The notes beneath the pieces were generated by a model. That model was not told the origin of the DNA and searched no databases. It saw only the letters and a program-made list of their open reading frames with translations. From Nitrospira sp. (lineage in GTDB: Bacteria > Nitrospirota > Nitrospiria > Nitrospirales > Nitrospiraceae): a stretch of 64,000 nucleotides of DNA. A program made the position numbers and the translations under genes. The DNA lies in the NCBI GenBank assembly GCA_018242765.1, contig JAFEBH010000025.1, positions 140,858-204,857 of the forward strand. The letters are read 5' to 3'. Position 1 is the first letter of the stretch. The number at the start of each line of letters is the position of its first letter. Positions 16,755 to 32,151 of the stretch are shown one piece after another.

Positions 16755-17866
16755 GGCACCACCACCGGCGCCAAGGCACCGCGGCCTTCACGCCTGAGCG
16801 AAAAGCTCTGCTTGTATTCACCGCGCTTGATCCGATGCGTCACTTCCTGCACGTAATACATGCCGTCGTAGCTTTGCCCCACACCACGAACCCCAACCAA
16901 TCGACGTGAACGTAAGGCTCGCCCATAGCGCACGGCGTCCACTTCCCCTGTCGCCGTCACCGCATCCGACGACTGACTTGCCGAGGACAGACCCCGCAAC
17001 GCGGCCTGAATCGGATTGAGATTGGAGGTATTCCTGGGTAACGTCTTCCGCAACGAGCTGGCTGGTTGCCGAGCCAAGGGTGGATGCAGACCGCTGGGCA
17101 AGGGAATCGAGATGGACCGCTTGGTGAAGGGTTCGAGAATCGTGACTTGTGGCTCAGCCGGACCCAGCGCATCGAAGCTGAACGACATCGGTTGATCCAC
17201 ATTCGTATCGGCTCCCATATTCATGGTGAGTGCCGGTTGCGGCAATCCCAATCGGTTGTCGAGGCCCCAATAGGCGTCATTGATGCCAGGGCTTAGGGTC
17301 GGCTCGATGTAAAACACGAAGCCGTTTCGCTGAGCGAGTTCGCGGATGAAATCGAGATCGCTCCCCTGCTGCGAGGGAATCCGGTCGACCTGAATCGGCA
17401 CATCCGTCGTCGGCGTCACGCGAGGCAGCAGCCCCAACGTCGGATAGTTGCCGATCAACTTGTTGACGATGACCCAATCGGCCTGGTTGGGAAAGATTTC
17501 GCTCTTCTCCTCCAGACTGAGTTTCAAGCTGATATCCTTCCCAAACACGGTCAACGTGGACTCTCCAGGCCGATTGCTGGGAGCGATCTGATGATTGGTG
17601 ATGATGCCGTCGATCAATATTTGAGGGAACACCCCGACGAAGACTTGAATAATGACCCGGCTCGGCGGATCAAGCAGCCCGCTGAGCAAGAGTCCATAAT
17701 CGAGGATCGTCTCCTTCCCCAGACTGAACGACAGCTTGAACCCGTCGAAATCTTGATCACGATTCGTGACTTCCACATCAATCAGCGCCTCCATCACCGG
17801 ATAGGGCGCGGGGATGGCAATCGTGGGGCCGATCAATAATTGGAGACGGACGCCCAAGCTTGGCAT
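16751..17866 (-). CDS. gpD/gp27-like baseplate hub protein (Afp7 position)
   Basis: 371 aa. The C-terminal YDGMYYVQEVTHRIKRGEYKQSFSLRREG is typical of the phage late control D / VgrG N-terminal family. Confidence 0.75.
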   Translation of the reverse strand: MPSLGVRLQLLIGPTIAIPAPYPVMEALIDVEVTNRDQDFDGFKLSFSLGKETILDYGLLLSGLLDPPSRVIIQVFVGVFPQILIDGIITNHQIAPSNRPGESTLTVFGKDISLKLSLEEKSEIFPNQADWVIVNKLIGNYPTLGLLPRVTPTTDVPIQVDRIPSQQGSDLDFIRELAQRNGFVFYIEPTLSPGINDAYWGLDNRLGLPQPALTMNMGADTNVDQPMSFSFDALGPAEPQVTILEPFTKRSISIPLPSGLHPPLARQPASSLRKTLPRNTSNLNPIQAALRGLSSASQSSDAVTATGEVDAVRYGRALRSRRLVGVRGVGQSYDGMYYVQEVTHRIKRGEYKQSFSLRREGRGALAPVVVP

Positions 17867-17868
17867 AG

Positions 17869-18183
17869 CTAGATCGCCCCCGATTGGGGAAACGTAATCC
17901 GCAATCGACGACCAACCGTCCTCGTCAATTCGTCAGACCGCATGGCGTTATTCGCATCGCACAGGCGCCAGAATTGCTCGGGATCGCCGAGATACCGCGC
18001 CGTGATATTGTCGAGCCGCTCCCCTTGTGTCACGACATGTTCAGCCACAATCGGCGTATTGGGGCTGACGGCCGGCACAAATCGGCGGCGCAGGTAGGCG
18101 ATCTCCTTCCCTTCTGCCGGTTCGTACTTCGCGTTTTCGATACCGTGGTACCGACTGGTCGGAGGAAACATCGTGCACCTCAC
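17869..18183 (-). CDS. LysM/gpX-like small baseplate protein
   Basis: 104 aa. GERLDNITARYLGDPEQFWRLCDANN...LRITFP resembles the LysM-like tail protein X. The GTG start overlaps the upstream stop (GTGA). Confidence 0.6.
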   Translation of the reverse strand: MRCTMFPPTSRYHGIENAKYEPAEGKEIAYLRRRFVPAVSPNTPIVAEHVVTQGERLDNITARYLGDPEQFWRLCDANNAMRSDELTRTVGRRLRITFPQSGAI

Positions 18184-18836
18184 CCAAGCTTGATGGATGT
18201 CGCAAGATTCTGCGTACTCACGGCTACATTACTGGTCGCCATCACTTCCTTCGCGATCTGATGCACCATGAAGAGCGAGTACCCGGGGTTCGTCAGCTTC
18301 AAGTCGGCGTAGCTCAACACCGTCAGCGTCAAATCGACCTTCGCTCGAATTGGATTGAGCATCGGATCGTAGGCTTCTTCCGTGATACTGAAGCCAGTGA
18401 CCCGCACCGGCAGCACGCGCGTTGCGCCCCACACAAATAAGGTCAACGGAGCCTCCGGTGGAATGATTTCAATGTTGCCGGCTTGGGCCAGCGTTGAGTT
18501 GGCGATGACCGTTACGCTCTTCGGATACAGCAACATCTCCAGCGCCGACAGGGTCGGAGAGATCCCGGAGATCAGGGCCAGGGGATTGGCCTGCTCGAGT
18601 TGGTCGGTGGCATCTACTTCAATATTGAGTGTGATCGTCTCCTTAGGCGGACCCGTCAGCCGAAACGCTTCCGATCGGTCGCTCGTGTCGCCACCACCCG
18701 TTGACCGTGCCTCCAGTCGGCGTGTCATGGTATCCGGGTTGTATTGAAACACCACCACGCTGGCGAGCGGATTCATGGCATCCACGCCAACAATCGCGCC
18801 TTTGACTAATCGAGGAGAACCGGGGAAGGAACTCAT
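18180..18836 (-). CDS. Second tube-like protein (Afp5-type inner tube/tube initiator)
   Basis: ORF extends to 18884, but the likely start is MSSFPGSPRL at 18836. VVFQYNPDTMTRRLE...ITLNIEVDATD is the CIS tube-protein N-terminal motif. Confidence 0.7.
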   Translation of the reverse strand: MSSFPGSPRLVKGAIVGVDAMNPLASVVVFQYNPDTMTRRLEARSTGGGDTSDRSEAFRLTGPPKETITLNIEVDATDQLEQANPLALISGISPTLSALEMLLYPKSVTVIANSTLAQAGNIEIIPPEAPLTLFVWGATRVLPVRVTGFSITEEAYDPMLNPIRAKVDLTLTVLSYADLKLTNPGYSLFMVHQIAKEVMATSNVAVSTQNLATSIKLG

Positions 18837-18893
18837 AACTTTAGTCCTAATTGAATCAGAGCAGCACTCTATCCAAGACAGCAAAAACCGAAC

Positions 18894-20234
18894 TCATGGT
18901 GCGACGGGCACCCTAGCTGCCCGCTCAGCGATAAGTTGGTCAATCGTAAGCCGTCGCCCATCGCTTGTTCGCACAAATACCTCGCCACCGCGCCTTTCCT
19001 GTCCAGCACGGAGAAAAATATGAAACACTCGGTAGCCTTCTTGGCTCCTGAACGCGAACACATTTGTGCCATTGGGTCTAGTCTCTTCGAAATTGAATCG
19101 GATGGTCGGATCACCAATGACATTTCGGAGAAGCTCAGCTTCCACATCGAGACCAGCTCGATGTGCTCGATCAAACTCAGCCTGGCTGAAGTTCGTGCCA
19201 ATCCGTCGATCGTAGTTGGGCACCCTAAAACGCTCTGCCAGTAGATGGAGAAGGTTCAGCTGAAAGCTGATATCGTCAGATGAGAGTAAGTCGTCAAGGT
19301 CTAAGTAACCAGAGTCGAAGTTATCAATCAAAAGAGGCACGAATCTCCCACCATCCTGAACACGACCCGCACTTGTAATGAGCCGCAGGGGAACCACTTC
19401 TCCTCGATCTATGAAACCACGCAGATGGCAGTCAAAGGTCGTGAGCGCTGTCTCATCAACTACATCGTAGACAATCCGTCTCCCATCGAGCCGATACTGG
19501 ATGCCTGTAGAAATCGCATTGAGTCGGTCGACCAATTCCTGACGTCGATCGAAGGCAGAGGCTTCTCCTCTGCCTGGTGGTCTCACTTCAACTGTGCGCT
19601 GGATAGTCGGTGCGCCTGTTGCCTGCTGCACCACATGCGTCAACTCATGAGCAATTAACCGCTGTCCCTCGTTTGTCCCTGGAGCGAACCGCCCTGCACC
19701 AAACACAATGTTATGTCCGACGGCGTACGCACTAGCGTTTACGTCACGAGCTGATTGTGCAGCGGCTGCACCGGAATGCACCCGCACCTGGGAGAAGTCA
19801 TATCCAAAACGCTGCCCCATATCTTGCTGTAGAGCCGGTTTCAGCAACTGGCCTGTTGAGTTCAAAACTTCATGCACACTCGGCGGCACATCCCCTACCC
19901 CAATTACACCAGCGGTTGCTCGTCGTTGCACCAAGGGCTGAGTCCTGCCTCCGTTCTGTTGCCTAGTCACATCCGCAGGCGACATCCACATGACTTGCTC
20001 AGCTACACGATCGGCTTCTTGCTCAAACACATCGCCTGGCTCACTGATCGCCAGCTTGGTTTGCAGCAGCTTCCCGCCAACACCCAGTTTCTTCTTCTGA
20101 CATTCCGCACACTGCCCTCCACCCATGGTGTGTGTCCCGCAGACACATTTGCGTTGCAAAACACCGCGTGAGACTGGCGTGAAGGGCATGAAACTATTGC
20201 GCCTTGTCTGGTTGTGCGTTTTCTCACTCAACAT
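18894..20234 (-). CDS. DUF4157-led eCIS cargo protein 2 with an unassigned C-terminal domain
   Basis: 446 aa. N-terminal module: LQRKCVCGTHT..CAECQKKK..LAISEPGDVFEQEADRVAEQVM...FGYDFSQVRVHSG...AYAVGHNIVFG...HELTHVVQQ. About 235 aa follow with no motif I recognise. Confidence 0.8.
   Translation of the reverse strand: MLSEKTHNQTRRNSFMPFTPVSRGVLQRKCVCGTHTMGGGQCAECQKKKLGVGGKLLQTKLAISEPGDVFEQEADRVAEQVMWMSPADVTRQQNGGRTQPLVQRRATAGVIGVGDVPPSVHEVLNSTGQLLKPALQQDMGQRFGYDFSQVRVHSGAAAAQSARDVNASAYAVGHNIVFGAGRFAPGTNEGQRLIAHELTHVVQQATGAPTIQRTVEVRPPGRGEASAFDRRQELVDRLNAISTGIQYRLDGRRIVYDVVDETALTTFDCHLRGFIDRGEVVPLRLITSAGRVQDGGRFVPLLIDNFDSGYLDLDDLLSSDDISFQLNLLHLLAERFRVPNYDRRIGTNFSQAEFDRAHRAGLDVEAELLRNVIGDPTIRFNFEETRPNGTNVFAFRSQEGYRVFHIFLRAGQERRGGEVFVRTSDGRRLTIDQLIAERAARVPVAP
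19599..20162 (-). repeat. DUF4157 leader module, copy B (paralogous to 22135-22704)
   Basis: The protein blocks are near-identical between the two cargo genes. Nucleotide similarity is visible, for example ccacccatggtgtgtgtcccgcagacaca versus ccacccatggtgtgcgtgccacaggcaca. Confidence 0.7.
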
Positions 20235-20362
20235 TTCTATTCACTCAGCCCTATTGATCTCTCATGAAACCGTGACTCCTCTGCCACCACTCGGCAGAAC
20301 CTCTTGACTCTGGGAAGGTAGGCTGTCCCCTTTTCAATTCGTTCTGCTGACATCTAACCGCC

Positions 20363-20728
20363 TTAAGCCTGGTTTACAGTAGTTAACCACTTCTCAAAGT
20401 CCTGCAATGTCATAAGAACTTCTGGCTTCAGCCGGTAGTCGTCGTTGTCAAAATCGACAAAGCACTCTGCTGGCAAACCTGCGTATGCAGGACCACTTTG
20501 TGCTGCATAAGCTCTGAAACGCACACCGGTGTCTTGGTCGAGGATTGCATATGAGTAGTAGACATCACCTGCCGAGTCTGATGCGCCAAAACGTGCCATG
20601 AGCAGTGTGCCGAAAGCCTGCACATCAAACGCCTCATCGTCCGTTAGTGTCGGATTTGTCTCATATCGACTAGCGAGTTTGGCACCGCGCACCTCTTTTG
20701 CACCAAGCCGGACATAGCGCGATCGCAT
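20363..20728 (-). CDS. Small protein translationally coupled to cargo protein 1; candidate immunity/accessory protein
   Basis: 121 aa. Its ATG shares one nucleotide with the upstream TAA (TAATG at 20726-20730). No recognisable family. Confidence 0.6.
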   Translation of the reverse strand: MRSRYVRLGAKEVRGAKLASRYETNPTLTDDEAFDVQAFGTLLMARFGASDSAGDVYYSYAILDQDTGVRFRAYAAQSGPAYAGLPAECFVDFDNDDYRLKPEVLMTLQDFEKWLTTVNQA

Positions 20729-22803
20729 TAGTCACCCTCCGGTCGCTCTTCAGTGCTTCCAGTGGCTACAAAACGTCCAAGTGCTGGAATCAGCATCAGC
20801 AGTGCTGCGGACCCCGCACCCAGCAAGGCTTCATCACCAGGCACTGGATCGAACACCGCAATCAAAGCGAGAATTCCCAGAATGATTGCGCCCACCACCA
20901 ACAACGCAATTGCGATTGCCGCAAGTGCACGCACCAGGATTTCCCCGATTGTTAGCAACACTTCACCAATGAAACCTAGGGCTTGACCAATTGCTTCTAC
21001 CATCCGTGTCAACGTCGCGCTGAGTTCAGCTAGAATTGCAGTAGCAACACGTGCAGCAACCACTGTAACCACTACTGGAATCAGTCGCTGAGTTTGCTCA
21101 CGCAACAGCCGTCGAATCCTGTCAAGCAGATCAGACAATGCCACTGCAGGCACACCAACGCATAGCGCGACCAGCGCGTTCCGCACTAATTCAGTCAATA
21201 CGCTGCGCAGTTGGTTACGTAACTCAGAAATTAAGGTGTCTGAGACTAGCCTCACCAGGGTTGTTACGATTGAACGCACCTCTGCCCCAACGGCCTGGTC
21301 GAGCAGTTGTGCGATCTGCTCAGCGGTAGCTCGGCTCAACACCTGGTCGGCAACCGGCCCAAGATACGGTCGCAACATTTGTCGGATCTGTGTACCAAAG
21401 TGACGCTCGGCTAACCGAATCAAATCACCAAGACTCTGTCGTCGTAGTGTTGCCTCAAGTGGCCTCTGTATGTGATCACGAATGAATCCATCCAACACCT
21501 CCTGCGCCGGACCGCCAACCACGCGGTCAACATATCTTGCAGTCTCCTCTGCAGACACACCACAAGTGTAGGTATCTGAACCACCGCCAGTACACCAATA
21601 CCCAATAGCACCTGGTGCAACCGTCTTTGCTTTCAATGTACGTGTGCGGTCTCCAATAAAATCGCCGATTACGGTGGTATTAGGTAACACCCCGGTCAGC
21701 CTGGTAAATGATGGTCGCAGAGGGCCACGCAGGTAACCTCTCTGAAAATCGCGGTCATCATCGCTTGCTGTCCCACAGATACCGGTACCATACAACCGGT
21801 CTACCGACTGATCGGCACGACGAATATAGTGTTCCGATTCAAGTACACCTCGTGTCGGTGCTGAGCCTATTGGCTTGATCTCTCCAATTTCGTAGAGGAT
21901 CCCGGATCGACGCATTAAATCGGCATAACCTAAACTGGTATCAACACCCTGGCAACCTTGACTGTCAATGTTCCGCTTTGTCGCACGTGGAATCGGCACC
22001 TCGTTCAACATAGGTAGCAAGAAGGTCTGGATCTGGGTATGTGCTCGCTCCCCGGCACCCATAGGTCCATTGTCGTTCTCATCCTCCTCTGTCATTGAAG
22101 TCGCGCACCCACCTGCCCCGCGTGTAGTTGCTCGCTGCACTGAGTAGCTTGCATCTACACCCGACTGTTGAACGACATGAGTCAACTCATGTGCAAGCAA
22201 GCGTCGGCCCATGTTTGTTTCAGTCGAAAATTGACCTGTACCAAATACGATATTGTGACCCACCGTGTAGGCATGGGCGTTCACATGCCGCACCGATTGC
22301 TCGACAGTCCCACCGGAATGCACTCTCACATGACTAAAATCCTGACCAAATCTTGGCTCGAAGAAGGCACGTGTAGCTCCATCAAGTGGCTGCCCTGGTG
22401 ATTTCAAAACATCACTCACACTCGACGGAGCTTCTGCCAATCCTGTTGCACCGCCGACTGCTCGCCGTTGAACCAACGGCTGTGTCATTCCGCTCTTTTG
22501 CCGTTTACTCACATCCGCCGGCGACATGCGCATCACTTGCTCAGCGACACGATCTGCTTCCTGCTCATACACATCGCCAGGTTCACTGATCGCCAGTTTG
22601 GTTTGCAGTGGCCTACCCTCGACACCCAGTTTTTTCTTTTGACACTCCGCACACTGTTCTCCACCCATGGTGTGCGTGCCACAGGCACACTGGCGTTGAA
22701 GAAGACCAGTACAGCCTGACCGAGGAGCCTGATTCCTTCCAGCTTCAGCTTGTACGGCAGTCCGTTCCATTCCCACTCTTCCCTCAGTCTCGCGGCCCCT
22801 CAC
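20728..22803 (-). CDS. DUF4157-led eCIS cargo protein 1, multidomain with a hydrophobic C-terminus
   Basis: 691 aa. It has the same leader module as cargo 2, including HELTHVVQQ. The middle domain carries GERAHTQIQ...LGYADLMRRSGILYEIGEIKP. The C-terminal ~150 aa are very hydrophobic (ALVALCVGVPAVAL; LAAIAIALLVVGAIILGILALIAVF; LLGAGSAALLMLIPALG). Confidence 0.8.
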   Translation of the reverse strand: MRGRETEGRVGMERTAVQAEAGRNQAPRSGCTGLLQRQCACGTHTMGGEQCAECQKKKLGVEGRPLQTKLAISEPGDVYEQEADRVAEQVMRMSPADVSKRQKSGMTQPLVQRRAVGGATGLAEAPSSVSDVLKSPGQPLDGATRAFFEPRFGQDFSHVRVHSGGTVEQSVRHVNAHAYTVGHNIVFGTGQFSTETNMGRRLLAHELTHVVQQSGVDASYSVQRATTRGAGGCATSMTEEDENDNGPMGAGERAHTQIQTFLLPMLNEVPIPRATKRNIDSQGCQGVDTSLGYADLMRRSGILYEIGEIKPIGSAPTRGVLESEHYIRRADQSVDRLYGTGICGTASDDDRDFQRGYLRGPLRPSFTRLTGVLPNTTVIGDFIGDRTRTLKAKTVAPGAIGYWCTGGGSDTYTCGVSAEETARYVDRVVGGPAQEVLDGFIRDHIQRPLEATLRRQSLGDLIRLAERHFGTQIRQMLRPYLGPVADQVLSRATAEQIAQLLDQAVGAEVRSIVTTLVRLVSDTLISELRNQLRSVLTELVRNALVALCVGVPAVALSDLLDRIRRLLREQTQRLIPVVVTVVAARVATAILAELSATLTRMVEAIGQALGFIGEVLLTIGEILVRALAAIAIALLVVGAIILGILALIAVFDPVPGDEALLGAGSAALLMLIPALGRFVATGSTEERPEGD
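22135..22704 (-). repeat. DUF4157 leader module, copy A
   Basis: See the 19599-20162 entry. Confidence 0.7.
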
Positions 22804-22829
22804 TTACTCACTTTGCCTACAACTTCCTC

Positions 22830-23108
22830 TTACTGTTTCTTCGCTGAGTGACTGGTCCCAATTCCCTGATACACCGCTTGAGCAATCTGCCGTCCAAGCT
22901 GGACGGGGCTTGCACCCTCTGACATATTCATCACTGTGTGCGGCACAGAAGCACGGGCGCCTCCGGCCATGGTGTCCGGTCCAACGCCATTCACTTCAAT
23001 CAAGCGTGCCAATTCCTGCTCGACGGCCCCCTGCACGAGTGCCCGTTGGCTCCCTCGGAGAGGTAGGTCGTCCAGGATTAATCGCTCGATGTGCAATCGG
23101 ACGTTCAT
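22830..23108 (-). CDS. Small conserved-looking hypothetical protein between the ATPase and the cargo genes
   Basis: 92 aa (MNVRLHIERLILDDLPLRGSQ...). 4-nt overlap with the ATPase stop. Confidence 0.55.
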   Translation of the reverse strand: MNVRLHIERLILDDLPLRGSQRALVQGAVEQELARLIEVNGVGPDTMAGGARASVPHTVMNMSEGASPVQLGRQIAQAVYQGIGTSHSAKKQ

Positions 23109-25222
23109 GCCACCACTTCCGTTTCCTCATCCCATTGGAAATCGGCTTCGTAAATGGGTCGCTCCAGTTTGCGAAACTCCGCCCGAGCCGCCTCAAAGAT
23201 GAGCGGCATGGTCACGGGTGTACCGGCACCCGCTGCGAGAAACGCGGCGTTCATCGCAACATTGTTGATATTGCCACCATTCAGGTTGAGCTGTGCCAAC
23301 CGATCGAAGTCCAGTTGGGCCGTTTCTGTTTCTCGTGGAAAGACCCGTTCCCAGATGGCCTTTCGCTCTTGGATGCCGTGGGCACGGAACTCCACGACGA
23401 ACCGAATGCGGCGCATGAAGGCCTGGTCCAACGCACTTTTCCGATTTGTTGCCAGGATGGCCAACCCCCGATAGGCTTCGATACGCTGTAAGAGATAATT
23501 GATCTCGATGTTGGCATAGCGGTCGTGGCTGTCTTTCACGTCGCTCCGTTTGCCGAACAACGCGTCGGCCTCATCGAAAAAGAGGATCGCGCCGCCGTCC
23601 TCGGCGGCGTCGAACAACCGCCGGAGGTTTTTTTCCGTTTCTCCGATGTACTTACTGACCACCGCCGACAGGTCGATCCGAAAGAGACTCAATCGCAAGT
23701 CGTTCGCCAGCACTTCGGCTGCCATCGTCTTGCCGGTACCGCTCTCGCCGGCAAAGAGGGCATTGATGCTCAATCCGCGAGAGCGCTTCGCCGCAAAGCC
23801 CCAGTCGCTATAGACCCTGGTACGGTTCGCCACCTGTGCAGCCAGTTCATGTAGGAGCTTGAGCTCCGGTTCAGGCAACACAATGTCTTCCCAAGTCGCC
23901 TTTGGTTCGATCCGCTGCGCCAACAGCTCCAAACGTGGGCGGGTGTCCACAACACAAGCCTCCCAGAGCTGCTGGGGAATGGACTGTTGTCCGATGGCAG
24001 GAGATGACAGCGTCGTGCGCGCGATCTGATGGATCGTCGTGAGATTCAAATTAAACTGGCCGGCAAGTCTCGCCGCTGTACCGTTCTGCTGAGCCCCCAA
24101 AAGAGAATCCCACGCCTGATGTTGTTCGGATTTCGTCGGCTTCCTGATATCGAATGCGACTGAGGCACGGCCCGTTTCCATCCGACGATCCTGCGTATCA
24201 AGGAAAAAGATGCCGCTGCTCCGAGCTAAGAAGCGATGCAGCGCGGACGCATGGGTATCGCCTGTGGCCGTTTTCTCCATCTCATGGGCGTCCAGGTACA
24301 AGGCAAATGGCCAGAGAACCCCTTCACGCATGAGCAACCGCGTCAGCTGTTCCAGTTCGGCTGGTGGCGATGGGAGCAACTCGATTGGGAACCGATAGAG
24401 AGACAAGCGCAGTGCCGCTGCCGCATGACTCGCGACCAGTTGCTTGCTCGATGAATCGACACCCAGCAATTGCATGACCGGAACTGCCTGCAGCGACCAG
24501 GCCTCTCCTACCTGGCGAATCATGCTGTCCACTGTTGACCGTTGCGACGGTGGGAGATCTAGACCTCGATCTTCATACCGGAGTGGCAGTAGCAATGGCA
24601 CGAGTCGATCATCCAGATAGTTGAGCCCTTTGATGTAATTCACAATGCGCTCGTCGGCCCGCAGGGCGCTCGTCGTCAGCGGCTGTGCACCAGGTTGGTT
24701 GATTTCGAGCAGCCGCCAATATCTCAAGGGCCTCTCAGGCGACAGCACATCCCAGGCCGGCTCAGCAAACAGCGCCAACGCGAGCGCAAAGGTGGGATAG
24801 CGGCGCGCCGGATCATCCTGAGCCTGCGCACAGAGCAACGCCATTCTGGTATCAAACTCCATCGCCGCACAGAGGAGAAGCACTTCACTCTCAAACCTCG
24901 ACAAGCCCAAGTTACGGCGCAGCACAATCAACGCCGGTGGCTGGTCTACTGTTTCAAATGCCGCTAGTTCCTCAGCAGCTCGCGCCAGTTGCTTCTCACT
25001 GACACTGTTAGTTCCAACGGCAGGTTGAGCCTGTTTCGCGTCACGTCCTGATGAACGTCGAACACCTTTGTGCGGAGCCGAGCGAGGTTCTGGCTGTACC
25101 CGTGACGCTGCACCAGCTGACTGCTCGATAAACCAGGCCAGGCGGAACCGTAGCCATGCTAGTGCTTTCCTCAAATACTCATCATTCTGTTGCTGCCACG
25201 ATCTTGACTTCGAGGCTTTCAT
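23105..25222 (-). CDS. eCIS AAA+ ATPase (Afp15-like)
   Basis: Walker A is GESGTGKTMAAE and Walker B is ILFFDEADALFGKR, within a single C-terminal AAA module after an N-terminal region of about 450 aa. The likely start is the ATG at 25222, which overlaps the cap-gene stop (ATGA). The track ORF extends to 25273. Confidence 0.9.
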   Translation of the reverse strand: MKASKSRSWQQQNDEYLRKALAWLRFRLAWFIEQSAGAASRVQPEPRSAPHKGVRRSSGRDAKQAQPAVGTNSVSEKQLARAAEELAAFETVDQPPALIVLRRNLGLSRFESEVLLLCAAMEFDTRMALLCAQAQDDPARRYPTFALALALFAEPAWDVLSPERPLRYWRLLEINQPGAQPLTTSALRADERIVNYIKGLNYLDDRLVPLLLPLRYEDRGLDLPPSQRSTVDSMIRQVGEAWSLQAVPVMQLLGVDSSSKQLVASHAAAALRLSLYRFPIELLPSPPAELEQLTRLLMREGVLWPFALYLDAHEMEKTATGDTHASALHRFLARSSGIFFLDTQDRRMETGRASVAFDIRKPTKSEQHQAWDSLLGAQQNGTAARLAGQFNLNLTTIHQIARTTLSSPAIGQQSIPQQLWEACVVDTRPRLELLAQRIEPKATWEDIVLPEPELKLLHELAAQVANRTRVYSDWGFAAKRSRGLSINALFAGESGTGKTMAAEVLANDLRLSLFRIDLSAVVSKYIGETEKNLRRLFDAAEDGGAILFFDEADALFGKRSDVKDSHDRYANIEINYLLQRIEAYRGLAILATNRKSALDQAFMRRIRFVVEFRAHGIQERKAIWERVFPRETETAQLDFDRLAQLNLNGGNINNVAMNAAFLAAGAGTPVTMPLIFEAARAEFRKLERPIYEADFQWDEETEVVA

Positions 25223-26490
25223 TGTACGGTGACCTTCTTCGTCGTATCGAATTCCGGCGGCGTCTTGCTCCAATCGACCAGAAGGCTATCCACTCCATCC
25301 ACCCGTAGTCGGACGAAATAGATCCCAGGCACGATGTTCTTCAGGCGAAACTTCAAGGTATCCGTCTGTGCTGGGCGTGTTTCCGGATGCAGCTCTCGAT
25401 CGCCCAACAGGAGCGCCACACGCTGGGTCGCCTGTACCCTGGGACTCACTTGAACGGTTAATATCGCATCTCGCCTGACTGGCTTCGGAGTAACGTTCTC
25501 AATTTTTGGCGCAATAGACAGACTGAGGGCATTGGTCATCCGCTCATTCCCCGCTGCCGCCGGATCGATCGGTGTGATGTGGGCGGCCACGGTATAGAAC
25601 CCTGCCGGCAACTCGGTCGGCTTGTTCGGAACGGTCACCTTCAGCTCCTTGTCCGTTCCGTTCTTGGCCGGAATCTCCACAGTCTTCTTGAGCAACGGAT
25701 GCATCAGGTGCACTACCACCGAACTTTCACCCAAATGATGCCCCTTGATCAGGAGCTCATCTCCCAACAGTGCAGTGGGCTGTTGTTTCGGCAGTTCTGT
25801 CATATCGATCAATTTCTTACTCGGCTCTCGTGTCGGAACCGTAATCTCCGTCAGCGTTGGGAACGGCGTCGTCAAATCCGGCTGGACCACGACTCCCCGA
25901 TCATTTTTTCCGCGCAGCAACACCGGTAAGGGCGTCCTCGTCAGTCGTGTACTCTCGATCAGCACCACGGAGACTTGGTAGGCTGCCGATAGGCGGTAAT
26001 GGATCTGAAAGGTCGTCCAAAGCTTCGACATTTCTTCAAACAGCAGCGGCTGAAGGGTAATGCGAACACGCTCGACCTGGTCTGCCAGATCGCTGGCGGC
26101 CAAATCGCGGTCGGCCCGCACGGCATCTCTGATTTCGTCCGTCCCTAAGAGCGGATGGTCATGTAAAATGCGCATGGCCTCGCCGAGCAGGGCGTGACTT
26201 CTCGTCTCATCACGTTCATCGCCGCTGTACGCCGTCAGCAAGTAGTACAGTGTGAGCGGCAACGGGGGCTGGCCGGTTTCACCGGATTTCACTCGGCCCG
26301 GCATTTCCATATTGCGAAAGGCCGCATCCGGTAACGCCTGATAGAGAAAGAGATTGATCCGTTGTTTGTCGGCATTAATCCCTTCCGGCGCTTTGTCTAA
26401 TGGCCTGACCGTCACGTGTTCCACTCCACCTTTTTCCAGCAGTCGACGCAATGTCGCGGTCACCGAGGCAATCGCCAGTGAATTGCTCAT
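25219..26490 (-). CDS. DUF4255 (Pvc16/Afp16-like) tail terminator/cap with a long C-terminal extension
   Basis: 423 aa. The N-terminus MSNSLAIASVTATLRRLLEKG...INLFLYQALPDAAFRN is the DUF4255 signature. The C-terminal ~220 aa look like two beta-sandwich repeats. Confidence 0.8.
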   Translation of the reverse strand: MSNSLAIASVTATLRRLLEKGGVEHVTVRPLDKAPEGINADKQRINLFLYQALPDAAFRNMEMPGRVKSGETGQPPLPLTLYYLLTAYSGDERDETRSHALLGEAMRILHDHPLLGTDEIRDAVRADRDLAASDLADQVERVRITLQPLLFEEMSKLWTTFQIHYRLSAAYQVSVVLIESTRLTRTPLPVLLRGKNDRGVVVQPDLTTPFPTLTEITVPTREPSKKLIDMTELPKQQPTALLGDELLIKGHHLGESSVVVHLMHPLLKKTVEIPAKNGTDKELKVTVPNKPTELPAGFYTVAAHITPIDPAAAGNERMTNALSLSIAPKIENVTPKPVRRDAILTVQVSPRVQATQRVALLLGDRELHPETRPAQTDTLKFRLKNIVPGIYFVRLRVDGVDSLLVDWSKTPPEFDTTKKVTVQ

Positions 26491-29062: not shown

Positions 29063-30838
29063 CTAGACTTCGATTTGTCCCGCCATCTGTTGCAACTTAA
29101 TAATGACAAACTCCGCCGGTTTGAGCGGTGCAAAGCCGACCACGATGTTCACAATACCGAGGTTGATATCGTTCTGCGTCGTGGTCTCCTTGTCGCATTT
29201 GACGAAATAGGCCTCACGCGGTGTCGTGCCTTGAAAGGCTCCCTGTCGAAACAAATTGTGCATAAAGGCCCCGATGTTTAGTCTGATCTGTGCCCACAGG
29301 GGCTCATCGTTCGGCTCAAAGACGACCCACTGCGTGCCTCGATAGAGACTCTCTTCAATAAAGAGCGCCGTGCGGCGGACGGGAACATACTTCCACTCAT
29401 CGGCGAGTTGATCGGCGCCACGCAGCGTGCGCGCCCCCCAAATCACTCGACCATTGATCGGGAATATGCGCAAACAATTGATCCCCAGCGGATTCAGCAT
29501 GCCGTTCTCATTATCATTAAGGGAAACGTTCAGACCCTGAATGCCGTTGATGGCTGCATCAAGTCCGGCAGGCGCTTTCCATACACCGCGTGCAGTATCA
29601 GTGCGTGCCATGACCCCGGCAATAATTCCGCACGGAACAAAGGTATCAATTTGCCCATCACGGAGCGGGTCGGCTTCAAGCACCCGTGGAAAGTACAAGG
29701 CAGCATTGCGGGCCATGGTGCCAGACAGTCCGAGCCCTCCCAGGCCCTTCTTGGCCTCAGCTGTCGCTGTATCTTTGTTCTTACTCCAACTTGCTGGAGA
29801 GTCGACAATCAGCATCGCCCGTCGTTCGGTGCAGTACGCCATGGCCACTTGATACACAATGGGAGGTACATCGTCTTCTCGTTTGTCCGGGGGGATACAG
29901 AGAAGGTTAAACAGATCCGCTTTGTCCAGTGCGAACATTCCGGTTTTGAGATCTTTTTTACCCTCATATTCCGCCTGCTTCAGATCACCGCCATCGGACC
30001 CCTTCATGTCTTCTTCAGCTTTTTTCAGTTCAGTTTCAGCCTTGGTAATGTCACCTGGTACCTGCGGCCTGGCATCTTTTGCTGCGATAAGTTTAATTTC
30101 GGCGCTTGTGGCTGCATCCGCCAACTCACTCTTGGCAGTTTCCTTCGCAGACGCTAAGGCCTTTTCTGCCGCATCGATCTTCGCTTGGTCCGGTGGGTTA
30201 GCACTGGTTGCCTTATTCAATTCGTCGTTCAGCTTTTTAAGCTTGTCTGATGTGTCTACCGCCTTCTTGACCTTGGGCAGTTTGTCACCTGTCAATTCCA
30301 CTAGACTTGATTCAGCCTTAAGCACTCTATCGATCCGCCGCGTGGTGTCAGCGACCGTCAGATTCAAGAACTTTTCACTACTATTCCCCAGCCGAACTGT
30401 AAGGTTGAATAGAGCATCGGTGGCGCTGAGCCCTAAACGTGTCCGCATCTCATCGGAGACTTCCACGTCTATCGTTGCCCGCAGCTTCTTACCCCATGTG
30501 CCAGGACTTTTTGCGACGAGAGCCAGATCATCTACTCCCAAGCTCGCCCTAGCATCGTCAGGTGCCTGCGGATCCTTATAGAGTCTGACAATGATCGCTT
30601 GACTACCGCCGTTCAGATAAAAATCTCGAACAGCGTAACTCATGGGATAGTTCACCCCCAACCCGCCAAACTGCCGTTCAAAGTCCCCGAAACTGTTTAT
30701 TGTCACCGGCTCGTTCGCAGGCCCCCAAATAGCCCGGCCCAAGAATGCTGTAATGGAAGTCGCAACTCCCGTAATCGTACGCACTCCGCTCGGGATTTCT
30801 TCGATGTACACTCCTGGATATGTCGGCGATGTCGGCAT
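29063..30838 (-). CDS. Contractile tail sheath protein
   Basis: 591 aa. The N-terminus PTYPGVYIEEIPSGVRTITGVATSITAFLG is the canonical sheath N-terminus. The conserved C-terminal half includes ADLFNLLCIPP...YFPR...WGARTL. GGAGGA RBS. Confidence 0.92.
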   Translation of the reverse strand: MPTSPTYPGVYIEEIPSGVRTITGVATSITAFLGRAIWGPANEPVTINSFGDFERQFGGLGVNYPMSYAVRDFYLNGGSQAIIVRLYKDPQAPDDARASLGVDDLALVAKSPGTWGKKLRATIDVEVSDEMRTRLGLSATDALFNLTVRLGNSSEKFLNLTVADTTRRIDRVLKAESSLVELTGDKLPKVKKAVDTSDKLKKLNDELNKATSANPPDQAKIDAAEKALASAKETAKSELADAATSAEIKLIAAKDARPQVPGDITKAETELKKAEEDMKGSDGGDLKQAEYEGKKDLKTGMFALDKADLFNLLCIPPDKREDDVPPIVYQVAMAYCTERRAMLIVDSPASWSKNKDTATAEAKKGLGGLGLSGTMARNAALYFPRVLEADPLRDGQIDTFVPCGIIAGVMARTDTARGVWKAPAGLDAAINGIQGLNVSLNDNENGMLNPLGINCLRIFPINGRVIWGARTLRGADQLADEWKYVPVRRTALFIEESLYRGTQWVVFEPNDEPLWAQIRLNIGAFMHNLFRQGAFQGTTPREAYFVKCDKETTTQNDINLGIVNIVVGFAPLKPAEFVIIKLQQMAGQIEV

Positions 30839-30907: not shown

Positions 30908-31342
30908 TCAGTGACTGATTCTGCTTGCCTCTCGAAGCCTCTGCACAATGTCTTCTCGACCGATGTTGATAAAGTCTCTCCGGTGCGAAGTGAGCTGGAA
31001 CGTACAGGCCGCCGTCAGGTCTGGTGTCACGCTCATAATGATCAAATCCGGATACGTAGCGAGCAGCTGACTGCAAAGACCAGGCTCATGCTCGCCTTCC
31101 TGAGTGAGGATGACAGCATCGGCATTAGCCCGACCGGTCTCTTGCAATATTTTCATCGGCCCACGACAATCGCCGACCACTTCCATATCGTCCTGTTCGT
31201 CCACGAGCCTTCGAACAGTATCGGGAACCATTGCGGGATGATTCGCAAAAAGCACCCTAATCCTGTCCACTGACGACCTCACATTGCTGAATACACACGG
31301 TAGTGCCACTAGCGCTGAATTCCCATAGATCTGGATGATCAA
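30908..31342 (-). CDS. Stand-alone receiver-like (pseudo-receiver) protein
   Basis: REC-like layout IRVLFANHPAMV...MEVVGDC...ADAVILTQEGE...LIIMSVTPD, but without the acidic pocket or the phospho-acceptor Asp. The start is uncertain: TTG at 31342 or GTG at 31282. Confidence 0.55.
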   Translation of the reverse strand: MIIQIYGNSALVALPCVFSNVRSSVDRIRVLFANHPAMVPDTVRRLVDEQDDMEVVGDCRGPMKILQETGRANADAVILTQEGEHEPGLCSQLLATYPDLIIMSVTPDLTAACTFQLTSHRRDFINIGREDIVQRLREASRISH

Positions 31343-31470: not shown

Positions 31471-32151
31471 CTAGACGCTGCCGGCTCTACTTACTCGTTC
31501 TTTCACATGTTTCACAACTAAATAACGATTGGGTACCTGAAGTTTATCGAGAATATTATGAACATGATTCTTGACCGTCGACACTTCGACGTGAAGTCTG
31601 GTCGCGATTTCCTTATTGCTCAACCCATCTTCAATCAGCTGCACAATCTCGGTCTCTCGTCTGGTCAGAGCTATGCCGTTCGACACTCCGACTCTTTCTT
31701 CCTGACGAGCAAGCAATGACATTCGACAGAATGCGAGGTGAGCGATTCTTGGAGAACAGAGGGTCTCTCCTCGTGCGATCACCCGGAGATTGGCTTCCAG
31801 GTCCTTGAGAGACGCGTTCTGTAGCAAATAGCCGGAAGCCCCTCCGGCCTCAATACAATAGAGAATATCGGCTTCTCGATCAGGGACATCGATCACCAGG
31901 ACCTTCACTCCCAGCGGCAACCCATTCACCCAAGGACTGTTCTTTTCACCCTGTTGACGCAATAATGGAAACTCTACAATCAGGACATCAGATCTACATT
32001 CAGCGATATTCCGTTCTGGCTCCCCTAATTGCGCCGCCATGTGCACGACGCAGAAGGAACCGCACTGCGAAAGACAACAACTGAGAGATTCACGAAGAAG
32101 CTGGTTACTATGGACGATGGCGATCCGAACTTCTGAAGTCTGCATGACCAT
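31471..32151 (-). CDS. LuxR/NarL-family transcriptional regulator with an atypical receiver domain
   Basis: The C-terminal HTH is LTRRETEIVQLIEDGLSNKEIATRLHVEVSTVKNHVHNILDKL. The N-terminal REC-like fold reads IAIVHSNQ where DD is expected and DVLIVEFP where the D-L-x-MP acceptor is expected. Confidence 0.8.
   Translation of the reverse strand: MVMQTSEVRIAIVHSNQLLRESLSCCLSQCGSFCVVHMAAQLGEPERNIAECRSDVLIVEFPLLRQQGEKNSPWVNGLPLGVKVLVIDVPDREADILYCIEAGGASGYLLQNASLKDLEANLRVIARGETLCSPRIAHLAFCRMSLLARQEERVGVSNGIALTRRETEIVQLIEDGLSNKEIATRLHVEVSTVKNHVHNILDKLQVPNRYLVVKHVKERVSRAGSV

Follow-up and report, generated by a model that had tools for sequence, protein, structure and literature searches.

We describe here a gene for an extracellular contractile injection system (eCIS) cargo protein, located at positions 18894 to 20234 (minus strand) of a 64,000-nucleotide stretch of Nitrospira sp. 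DNA (GenBank assembly GCA_018242765.1, contig JAFEBH010000025.1, positions 140,858 to 204,857), hereafter the window. The gene is real, because 194 database proteins match its C-terminal domain (CTD) with E values down to 1e-121, and its product is of a known kind, a DUF4157-type eCIS cargo. The CTD, which comprises residues 210 to 446 of the 446-residue open frame used for numbering throughout, represents an unnamed, well-delimited, and unusually conserved domain family that is new with this work. We lean slightly toward reading the protein as a horizontally mobile, tube-loaded, injected effector enzyme built on a zincin-like scaffold.

The original prediction, made from the sequence alone, held that the CTD matches nothing that can be named. 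This was borne out in Pfam, NCBIfam (protein scan), and the PDB sequences, none of which gave a match, but the domain is not unique: it belongs to a conserved, unnamed family of 257 clusters. Pfam searches with 85 family members at E values up to 1 yielded no consistent family, phmmer and profile searches of the CTD against PDB sequences gave chance-level matches only, and tblastn against the PLSDB plasmids found no match. A possible origin of the CTD as a duplicate of DUF4157 was dropped (hhalign probability, about 0). The 194 matching proteins came from a word-indexed search and are 50 to 82% identical to the CTD over at least 94% of its length; their source names include Caldilinea, Gemmatimonadales, Planctomycetota, and Mangrovibacterium. 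A HMMER scan of 1.84 billion cluster representatives recovered the 257 clusters (defined at 50% identity) at an E value of ≤1e-3, 107 of them at ≤1e-30; the clusters are 35 to 80% identical and represent at least 9 phyla. In the GTDB species genomes, a single-pattern scan identified 64 CTD loci in nine phyla, namely, Chloroflexota, Acidobacteriota, Verrucomicrobiota, Bacteroidota, Actinomycetota, Pseudomonadota, Thermodesulfobacteriota, Gemmatimonadota, and Cyanobacteriota. Residues D304, D315, H330, and E334 are invariant in 85 to 93 diverse sequences, R335 and H358 are present in 100% of the 85-sequence set and in at least 90% of the 93 sequences, and R213, R218, R230, R237, D268, R284, Y310, D312, D314, Y341, and D375 are at least 89% conserved across these sets. 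All of these positions fall within residues 210 to 380; among the last 66 residues, a single position is conserved.

The N-terminal half places the protein among eCIS cargos. PF13699 (eCIS_core, formerly DUF4157) matches residues 131 to 207 at 104.4 bits (cut-off, 22), and the translation carries the family's HExxH at the end of the domain as HELTH (residues 196 to 200). Residues 24 to 205 align without gaps and with 69% identity to residues 33 to 214 of the neighboring paralog, cargo 1, which confirms the shared leader proposed earlier; beyond that point there is no alignment, and the 237-residue CTD (nucleotides 18897 to 19607) is unrelated to cargo 1. Common to both leaders are the motif LQR-K-C-x-C and the spacer E-Q-E-A-D-R-V-A-E-Q, and the leader motif is confined to these two genes of the genome. 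Across loci, leader identity tracks structural-gene identity. The leader is taken to be system-specific because the neighboring cargo 1 has it too, and this gene and cargo 1 share it in the manner of Cgo1/Cgo2-type eCIS cargos. Public gene calls and the ESM Atlas start the protein at M16 (nucleotide 20189), giving a 431-residue product; neither candidate start is preceded by a strong ribosome-binding site.

An [LIVM]QR tripeptide stands at each module boundary of the protein, at residues 25 to 27 (leader), 102 to 104 (before DUF4157), and 211 to 213 (start of the CTD). At the CTD start, it is found about 10 residues before a GRGE motif in 134 of 175 homologs, and it is 3.8 times commoner than expected from composition. 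The tripeptide could be a processing or recognition site.

Domain architectures were compared across the 64 loci. DUF4157 lies directly upstream of the CTD in the same open reading frame (ORF) at 46 of them and, at lower similarity, at two more. Stand-alone forms are mostly from Solirubrobacteraceae, and most open with about 50 residues holding an LxLQRxAGNRAV-type motif, followed by the CTD; one genome with such a form has two Pvc16_N cap genes on other contigs. Double-module fusions take the forms DUF4157-CTD-DUF4157-X (one with PT-HINT), leader-CTD-DUF4157-X, and DUF4157-X-DUF4157-CTD, and a further architecture is Peptidase_S8-…-CTD. Judged by these arrangements, the CTD nearly always follows an eCIS leader, with or without DUF4157, and its members look like cargo. 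Two side observations concern the company that it keeps. The CTD forms the C terminus of Peptidase_S8 proteins P0122 and P0143, and the subtilase association is repeated in Mangrovibacterium (L003:10001-13449), where the CTD is encoded directly upstream of a gene with S8 and P_proprotein domains. In Desulforapulum autotrophicum (L054:10763-11965), a leader-CTD gene is followed by one for a 400-residue Tox-PAAR-like protein.

The distribution of the CTD fits a mobile payload. Among 301 sampled Nitrospirota genomes, DUF4157 was found in 24 and the CTD in one of these, that of the window; among 151 Acidobacteriaceae genomes, the numbers were 18 and 2, so that the CTD occurs in 3 of 42 sampled DUF4157-bearing genomes (about 7%). 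In the related Nitrospirota loci examined, the structural genes come in the same order, and the interval from the ATPase to the tube initiator holds one to five DUF4157 genes; the CTD was not found in any of them, even by profile search at maximum sensitivity. Its identity is decoupled from that of the structural genes: the CTD is 71 to 73% identical to those of Caldilineaceae loci whose structural proteins are only 27 to 47% identical, and 34 to 42% identical in loci whose structural proteins are 55 to 87% identical. In the maximum-likelihood CTD tree, 25 phylum changes are needed, where the minimum would be 8, and the Nitrospira copy falls within Caldilineaceae (support, 98/85). Some copies lie at the end of an operon, and others are orphans at a distance from any eCIS gene. 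A core structural component would be present in all related loci and co-evolve with the structural genes, and the CTD does neither. The payload reading of the original prediction, which a structural or assembly domain conserved in all related loci would have contradicted, is supported: the domain is rare, is decoupled in identity from the structural genes, and has a tree that mixes phyla. These sequence comparisons indicate horizontal movement of the CTD between eCIS loci in at least nine phyla and show that it is not a core structural part.

In one eCIS lineage, the CTD keeps a constant place. At 18 of 19 loci with a downstream tube initiator, the CTD-bearing ORF ends between −30 and +231 nucleotides from that gene; the 19 loci span Acidobacteriota, Verrucomicrobiota, Alpha- and Betaproteobacteria, Chloroflexota, and Bacteroidota. 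At the most closely related sister locus (P0003, ENA sample ERZ28573519), where the CTD is 82% identical and the neighboring structural genes are equal in length, there are three cargo genes: one of 576 residues followed by a 250-residue HEAT-repeat ORF, one of 527 residues followed by a 79-residue ORF, and the DUF4157-CTD gene, which comes last and has no small ORF after it. The other cargo pairs differ from the 691-residue/121-residue pair in the window. Pairs of cargo and small ORF are thus swapped between the sister loci while the CTD gene stays, which is evidence that it is no ordinary variable toxin gene.

The fold of the CTD was predicted with AlphaFold2 (AF2) from alignments of 64 to 93 homologs. 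Residues 205 to 446 gave a predicted local distance difference test score (pLDDT) of 93.1 and a predicted template-modeling score (pTM) of 0.90; for residues 210 to 380, the N-subdomain, the values were 95.8 and 0.91. The remote-homology and structure searches proposed in the original prediction were run and disclosed no sequence-level family and weak zincin-type structural neighbors (Z ≤5.1). VIA-align was used to search 48,161 chains, and the N-subdomain was refolded alone because matches for the whole CTD were dominated by small beta-meander hits to the C-subdomain. By our own count over the 50 best neighbors of the N-subdomain, about 40 have zincin or zincin-derived folds, with Z scores of at most 5.1. 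They include four YbeY-family proteins (Z, 4.5 to 5.1; 107 to 118 residues); SjiH and the HExxH oxygenase domain of ChlB (Z, 4.2 to 4.8); the M35 enzymes deuterolysin, AsaP1, and Pra1; M1 aminopeptidases; Wss1/SprT and Spartan; M27; the VgrG2b effector domain; lugdulysin; M48 and M56 enzymes; selecase; abylysin; anthrax lethal factor (LF) and LF-N-like domains; botulinum neurotoxin light chains; and NTNH. Searches of the ESM Atlas returned only unnamed look-alikes, and the named language-model neighbors (the effector proteases M27, M91, and M85/GtgA, together with M35) all score <0.82 and serve as leads only.

Aligned ranges, by interpolation, place H330 within one helical turn of the first HExxH histidine of deuterolysin (H128), AsaP1 (H293), and YbeY (H114). 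On this placement, H330 and E334 would occupy positions i and i+4 of that helix, and H358 would lie 24 residues further on, in the next long helix. The third metal ligand of gluzincins sits on that next long helix. Neither HExxH nor HxxEH occurs on the active-site helix, where the family has an invariant H330-x3-E334-R335. Because a hydrophobic residue stands where the catalytic Glu would be, the CTD is best described as a zincin-like scaffold with non-canonical or non-protease chemistry. It is probably zincin-like, with a probable His/Glu/His site that lacks the usual catalytic Glu, and it is possible that it is an inactive zincin derivative that still binds metal.

Taken together as an injected effector, the protein would work as follows. 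The leader would direct it into the tube lumen, by analogy with known cargos and presumably aided by the AAA+ ATPase encoded just upstream; DUF4157 would follow the leader, as in other eCIS cargo, and the 237-residue CTD, with a zincin-like alpha/beta fold predicted for its first 170 residues, would be the payload. On this reading, the replacement of HExxH by H-x3-E-R on the same helix, together with the His on the next long helix and two Asp residues, resembles a metal site, and the CTD may be a metal-dependent effector enzyme of non-protease or non-canonical chemistry. Contraction would release it into a target cell. Adjacent immunity might be dispensable if the substrate were absent or inaccessible in the producer or if the effector were inactive until delivered.

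Several known systems provide points of comparison. In AlgoCIS, Cgo1 and Cgo2 fill the tube lumen and are built from a leader, DUF4157, and a C-terminal domain that varies (PMC8894135). Loading there requires the leader but neither DUF4157 nor the C-terminal domain (bioRxiv 10.64898/2026.05.27.728243). The Nitrospira pair likewise combines a leader common to both cargos with DUF4157 and differing C-terminal domains, in two genes side by side next to an AAA+ ATPase gene. The C-terminal domain of Cgo1 is, like the CTD, predicted to be metalloprotease-like (PMC8894135; bioRxiv 10.64898/2026.05.27.728243). By description, the Cgo1 domain has a canonical HExxH, in contrast to H-x3-E-R in the CTD, and loading has been demonstrated for Cgo1/2, whereas for the Nitrospira cargo it is presumed. 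DUF4157-fused eCIS-associated toxins (EATs), such as EAT4 (DUF4157 plus an M35 peptidyl-Lys metalloendopeptidase), are also effector fusions inside eCIS operons, and many tested EATs likewise have no immunity gene (PMC8213781; PMC11297309). Deuterolysin and AsaP1, both of the M35 family, appear in the neighbor list of the N-subdomain, but the CTD has no Pfam M35 signal, HExxH, or GTxDxxYG third-ligand motif, and it exceeds a typical "cloud" toxin domain by far in both conservation and spread. As in YbeY (UPF0054) and the HExxH alpha-ketoglutarate oxygenases, the putative metal site lies on the equivalent helix with no protease-type catalytic Glu. YbeY, however, has H-x3-H-x5-H where the CTD has H-x3-E-R … H, and the CTD does not match the YbeY profile; there is no sequence-level signal to either of these families, and the Z scores are too low to claim homology. 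The inactive toxin zincins, anthrax LF domain I and NTNH (Z, 3.2 to 3.4), similarly place a zincin-like scaffold without HExxH in a delivered protein, but they have no conserved metal-ligand set, whereas the CTD family keeps its invariant His/Glu/His and Asp residues.

The question of immunity was considered separately. There is no small same-strand ORF between the gene and the tube gene, as the original prediction had stated, and the 121-residue ORF on the other side, the sole small one in the vicinity, belongs with cargo 1. This ORF has no homolog at any of the 64 CTD loci, and the notion that the CTD is accompanied by it or by the C-terminal part of cargo 1 was rejected, with no match in the 64 loci. 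No conserved small partner accompanies any eCIS-embedded CTD copy, where the tube initiator comes next. Three Solirubrobacteraceae genomes carry an orphan leader-CTD gene with a 4-nucleotide overlap with a very acidic ORF of 124 to 129 residues. This ORF is assigned to the RraB family (PF06877; E value, 5.6e-21; L051:10783-11172, L052:10783-11169, and L047:10802-11176), and its product is a candidate for an immunity or partner protein. It occurs at 3 of the 64 CTD loci, in closely related species of one lineage, and was not found at the other 61; stand-alone CTD copies beyond these three genomes have no conserved downstream partner. A search of the window's genome (99.6% complete) for orphan immunity genes found no RraB-type (PF06877) gene, and a profile search at maximum sensitivity found no orphan CTD paralog elsewhere in it. 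The gene therefore has no conserved small adjacent partner of the kind that marks a toxin-immunity pair. The absence noted in the original prediction is real, but the inference drawn from it is weakened, because many tested or validated eCIS toxins have no immunity gene (Geller et al., PMC8213781).

A number of points weigh against an injected enzyme. Foldseek against the PDB, with the whole CTD or the N-subdomain, returned nothing at an E value of <0.01; no structural neighbor is individually significant (best Z, 5.1, at a root mean square deviation of about 5 Å); Atlas scores of 0.76 to 0.81 are mere leads; and the spatial grouping of H330, E334, and H358 is suggested by helix periodicity and topology. 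H330 is followed by a hydrophobic residue, which excludes classic zincin catalysis, and the CTD could be a non-catalytic pseudo-zincin like LF domain I or NTNH. Both the loading and the toxicity of the product are putative. The retention of the CTD beside the tube-initiator gene while other cargos vary, and its frequent fusion to a second complete cargo module, fit equally well with a companion or helper cargo, a pseudo-zincin co-loaded with variable toxins that aids their release, [LIVM]QR processing, refolding, or translocation and is itself no toxin. We consider such a role somewhat unlikely. It would account for the sister locus, which keeps the DUF4157-CTD gene last before the tube initiator while other cargos and small ORFs differ; for the tube-initiator adjacency in 18 of 19 loci from five phyla; for the recurrent fusions, including that with PT-HINT; for the lost catalytic Glu; and for the [LIVM]QR tripeptide at the CTD start of homologs and at each module boundary here. 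Inactive zincin derivatives used for binding or translocation (LF domain I, the N-domains of Certhrax and edema factor, and NTNH) are, moreover, among the neighbors. Against it, the low frequency of the CTD in DUF4157-bearing genomes implies that most such systems work without it, orphan copies lie far from any eCIS gene, AlgoCIS cargos load independently of one another (PMC8894135), and an invariant D/D/H/E/R/H set points more typically to catalysis than to a binding adaptor. A more specific form, in which the DUF4157-CTD protein is the conserved companion cargo of one widespread eCIS lineage and a pseudo-zincin comparable to the protective antigen-binding domain of anthrax lethal factor, is rather unlikely.

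It is quite improbable that the protein is an antibacterial toxin with an immunity protein that was overlooked or is encoded at another site. The toxin-immunity-like layout of the overlapping RraB-family ORF in Solirubrobacteraceae, the Tox-PAAR-like gene after the CTD in Desulforapulum, and the YbeY metallo-RNases at the top of the structural neighbors would agree with it. The restriction of that ORF to one lineage, the lack of a PF06877 gene in the nearly complete genome of the window, and the lack of a conserved small partner at eCIS-embedded copies would not, and the CTD is near neutral (pI, about 6) rather than basic. It is highly improbable that the protein has a structural or assembly role, for instance as a plug or a baseplate-associated factor of the particle. 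The place beside the tube-initiator gene and the strong sequence conservation would suit such a role, as would a DUF4157 protein of Streptomyces davawensis that co-purifies with the tip, spike, and tube initiator (PMC11126660), but the CTD is not found in related Nitrospirota loci of the same structural order, is rare, has an identity decoupled from that of the structural genes, is also encoded at operon ends or by orphan genes, and is joined here to a cargo leader.

The features of the gene and its surroundings are listed in Table 1.

Table 1. Features of the cargo gene and of neighboring genes in the window
Feature	Position	Strand	Basis
Whole gene; 446-residue DUF4157-type eCIS cargo protein	18894..20234	-	Open frame
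N-terminal leader, residues 1-99; presumed loading signal	19938..20234	-	Identity to cargo 1; role by AlgoCIS analogy
DUF4157/eCIS_core domain, residues 131-207	19614..19844	-	PF13699, E 3.5e-30
CTD N-subdomain, residues 210-380; conserved zincin-like core with all invariant residues	19095..19607	-	AF2, structural neighbors, conservation
CTD C-subdomain, residues 381-446; four-stranded beta-meander plus helix, sequence poorly conserved	18897..19094	-	
H330-x3-E334-R335 motif, on helix matching zincin active-site helix	19230..19247	-	Helix assignment interpolated from aligned ranges
Other invariant residues: D304; D315; H358	19323-19325; 19290-19292; 19161-19163	-	
Pvc15/Afp15-type AAA+ ATPase, presumed cargo loader; heads cargo block	23105..25273	-	PF00004, PF22977
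Cargo 1; 691-residue paralog, same leader and DUF4157, other C-terminal part without assigned family	20728..22803	-	
121-residue ORF overlapping cargo 1 stop; goes with cargo 1	20363..20728	-	
Tube-initiator-like (Afp5/Cis5-like) gene, downstream	18180..18884	-	PF19266; synteny

The minus-strand operon opens with genes for a sheath (29063 to 30838), a gp19-type tube, a T4_baseplate-like protein, a 438-residue protein, and a Pvc16_N cap. These are followed by the AAA+ ATPase, a 92-residue ORF, cargo 1, the 121-residue ORF, and the gene described here, and then by the tube initiator, a LysM-like protein, a 371-residue hub-like protein, a VgrG-like spike, a PAAR-like DUF4280 protein, and gp25. 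Two Baseplate_J-like giants, a 707-residue protein, and a DUF6519 protein complete the operon. The tube-like gene that had been placed next downstream starts 9 nucleotides past the stop codon; its product is CIS_tube-like (PF19266; 26.6 bits, just below the cut-off of 27), and it is syntenic with the tube-initiator gene in many eCIS loci. The C-terminal part of cargo 1 (475 residues) and the 121-residue ORF match no Pfam family, and no promoter-like or terminator-like site was found in positions 17500 to 23500. A gene for a LuxR/GerE-type regulator (31471 to 32151, minus strand) lies directly upstream of the sheath gene region, consistent with the GerE regulators reported beside eCIS operons (PMC8213781), and a 144-residue ORF with weak receiver-domain matches (30908 to 31342, minus strand) lies upstream of the sheath gene.

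The genome is that of a Nitrospira, and its TyrRS shares 97% identity with the TyrRS of Candidatus Nitrospira nitrosa. It contains four DUF4157 genes, two at this locus and two at a second contractile injection system locus outside the window (contig C18, about 6 to 36 kb). This second locus is divergent, with two sheath and two tube paralogs, and also encodes Pvc16, VgrG, gp25, a baseplate J protein, and an AAA ATPase. Its two DUF4157 genes are weak matches of 431 and 1945 residues, and the 1945-residue protein resembles the tape-measure-related effectors described in Streptomyces (PMC11126660).

DUF4157 is present in about half of the predicted eCIS toxins, and most of these lack any annotated effector domain (PMC11297309). 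One such unannotated tail now has family boundaries, invariant residues, a confident model, and a probable fold class, together with a phylogenetic and syntenic profile and identified cultured carriers (Chitinophaga filiformis, Ideonella oryzae, Variovorax humicola, Nostocoides japonicum, and Vibrio sp. YIC-376). As a helper, the CTD would bear on the handling of cargo once it is loaded. If it is an effector, it would be among the most widely shared and best conserved eCIS payloads and would provide an entry point to the role of eCISs in environmental bacteria, including nitrifiers such as Nitrospira.

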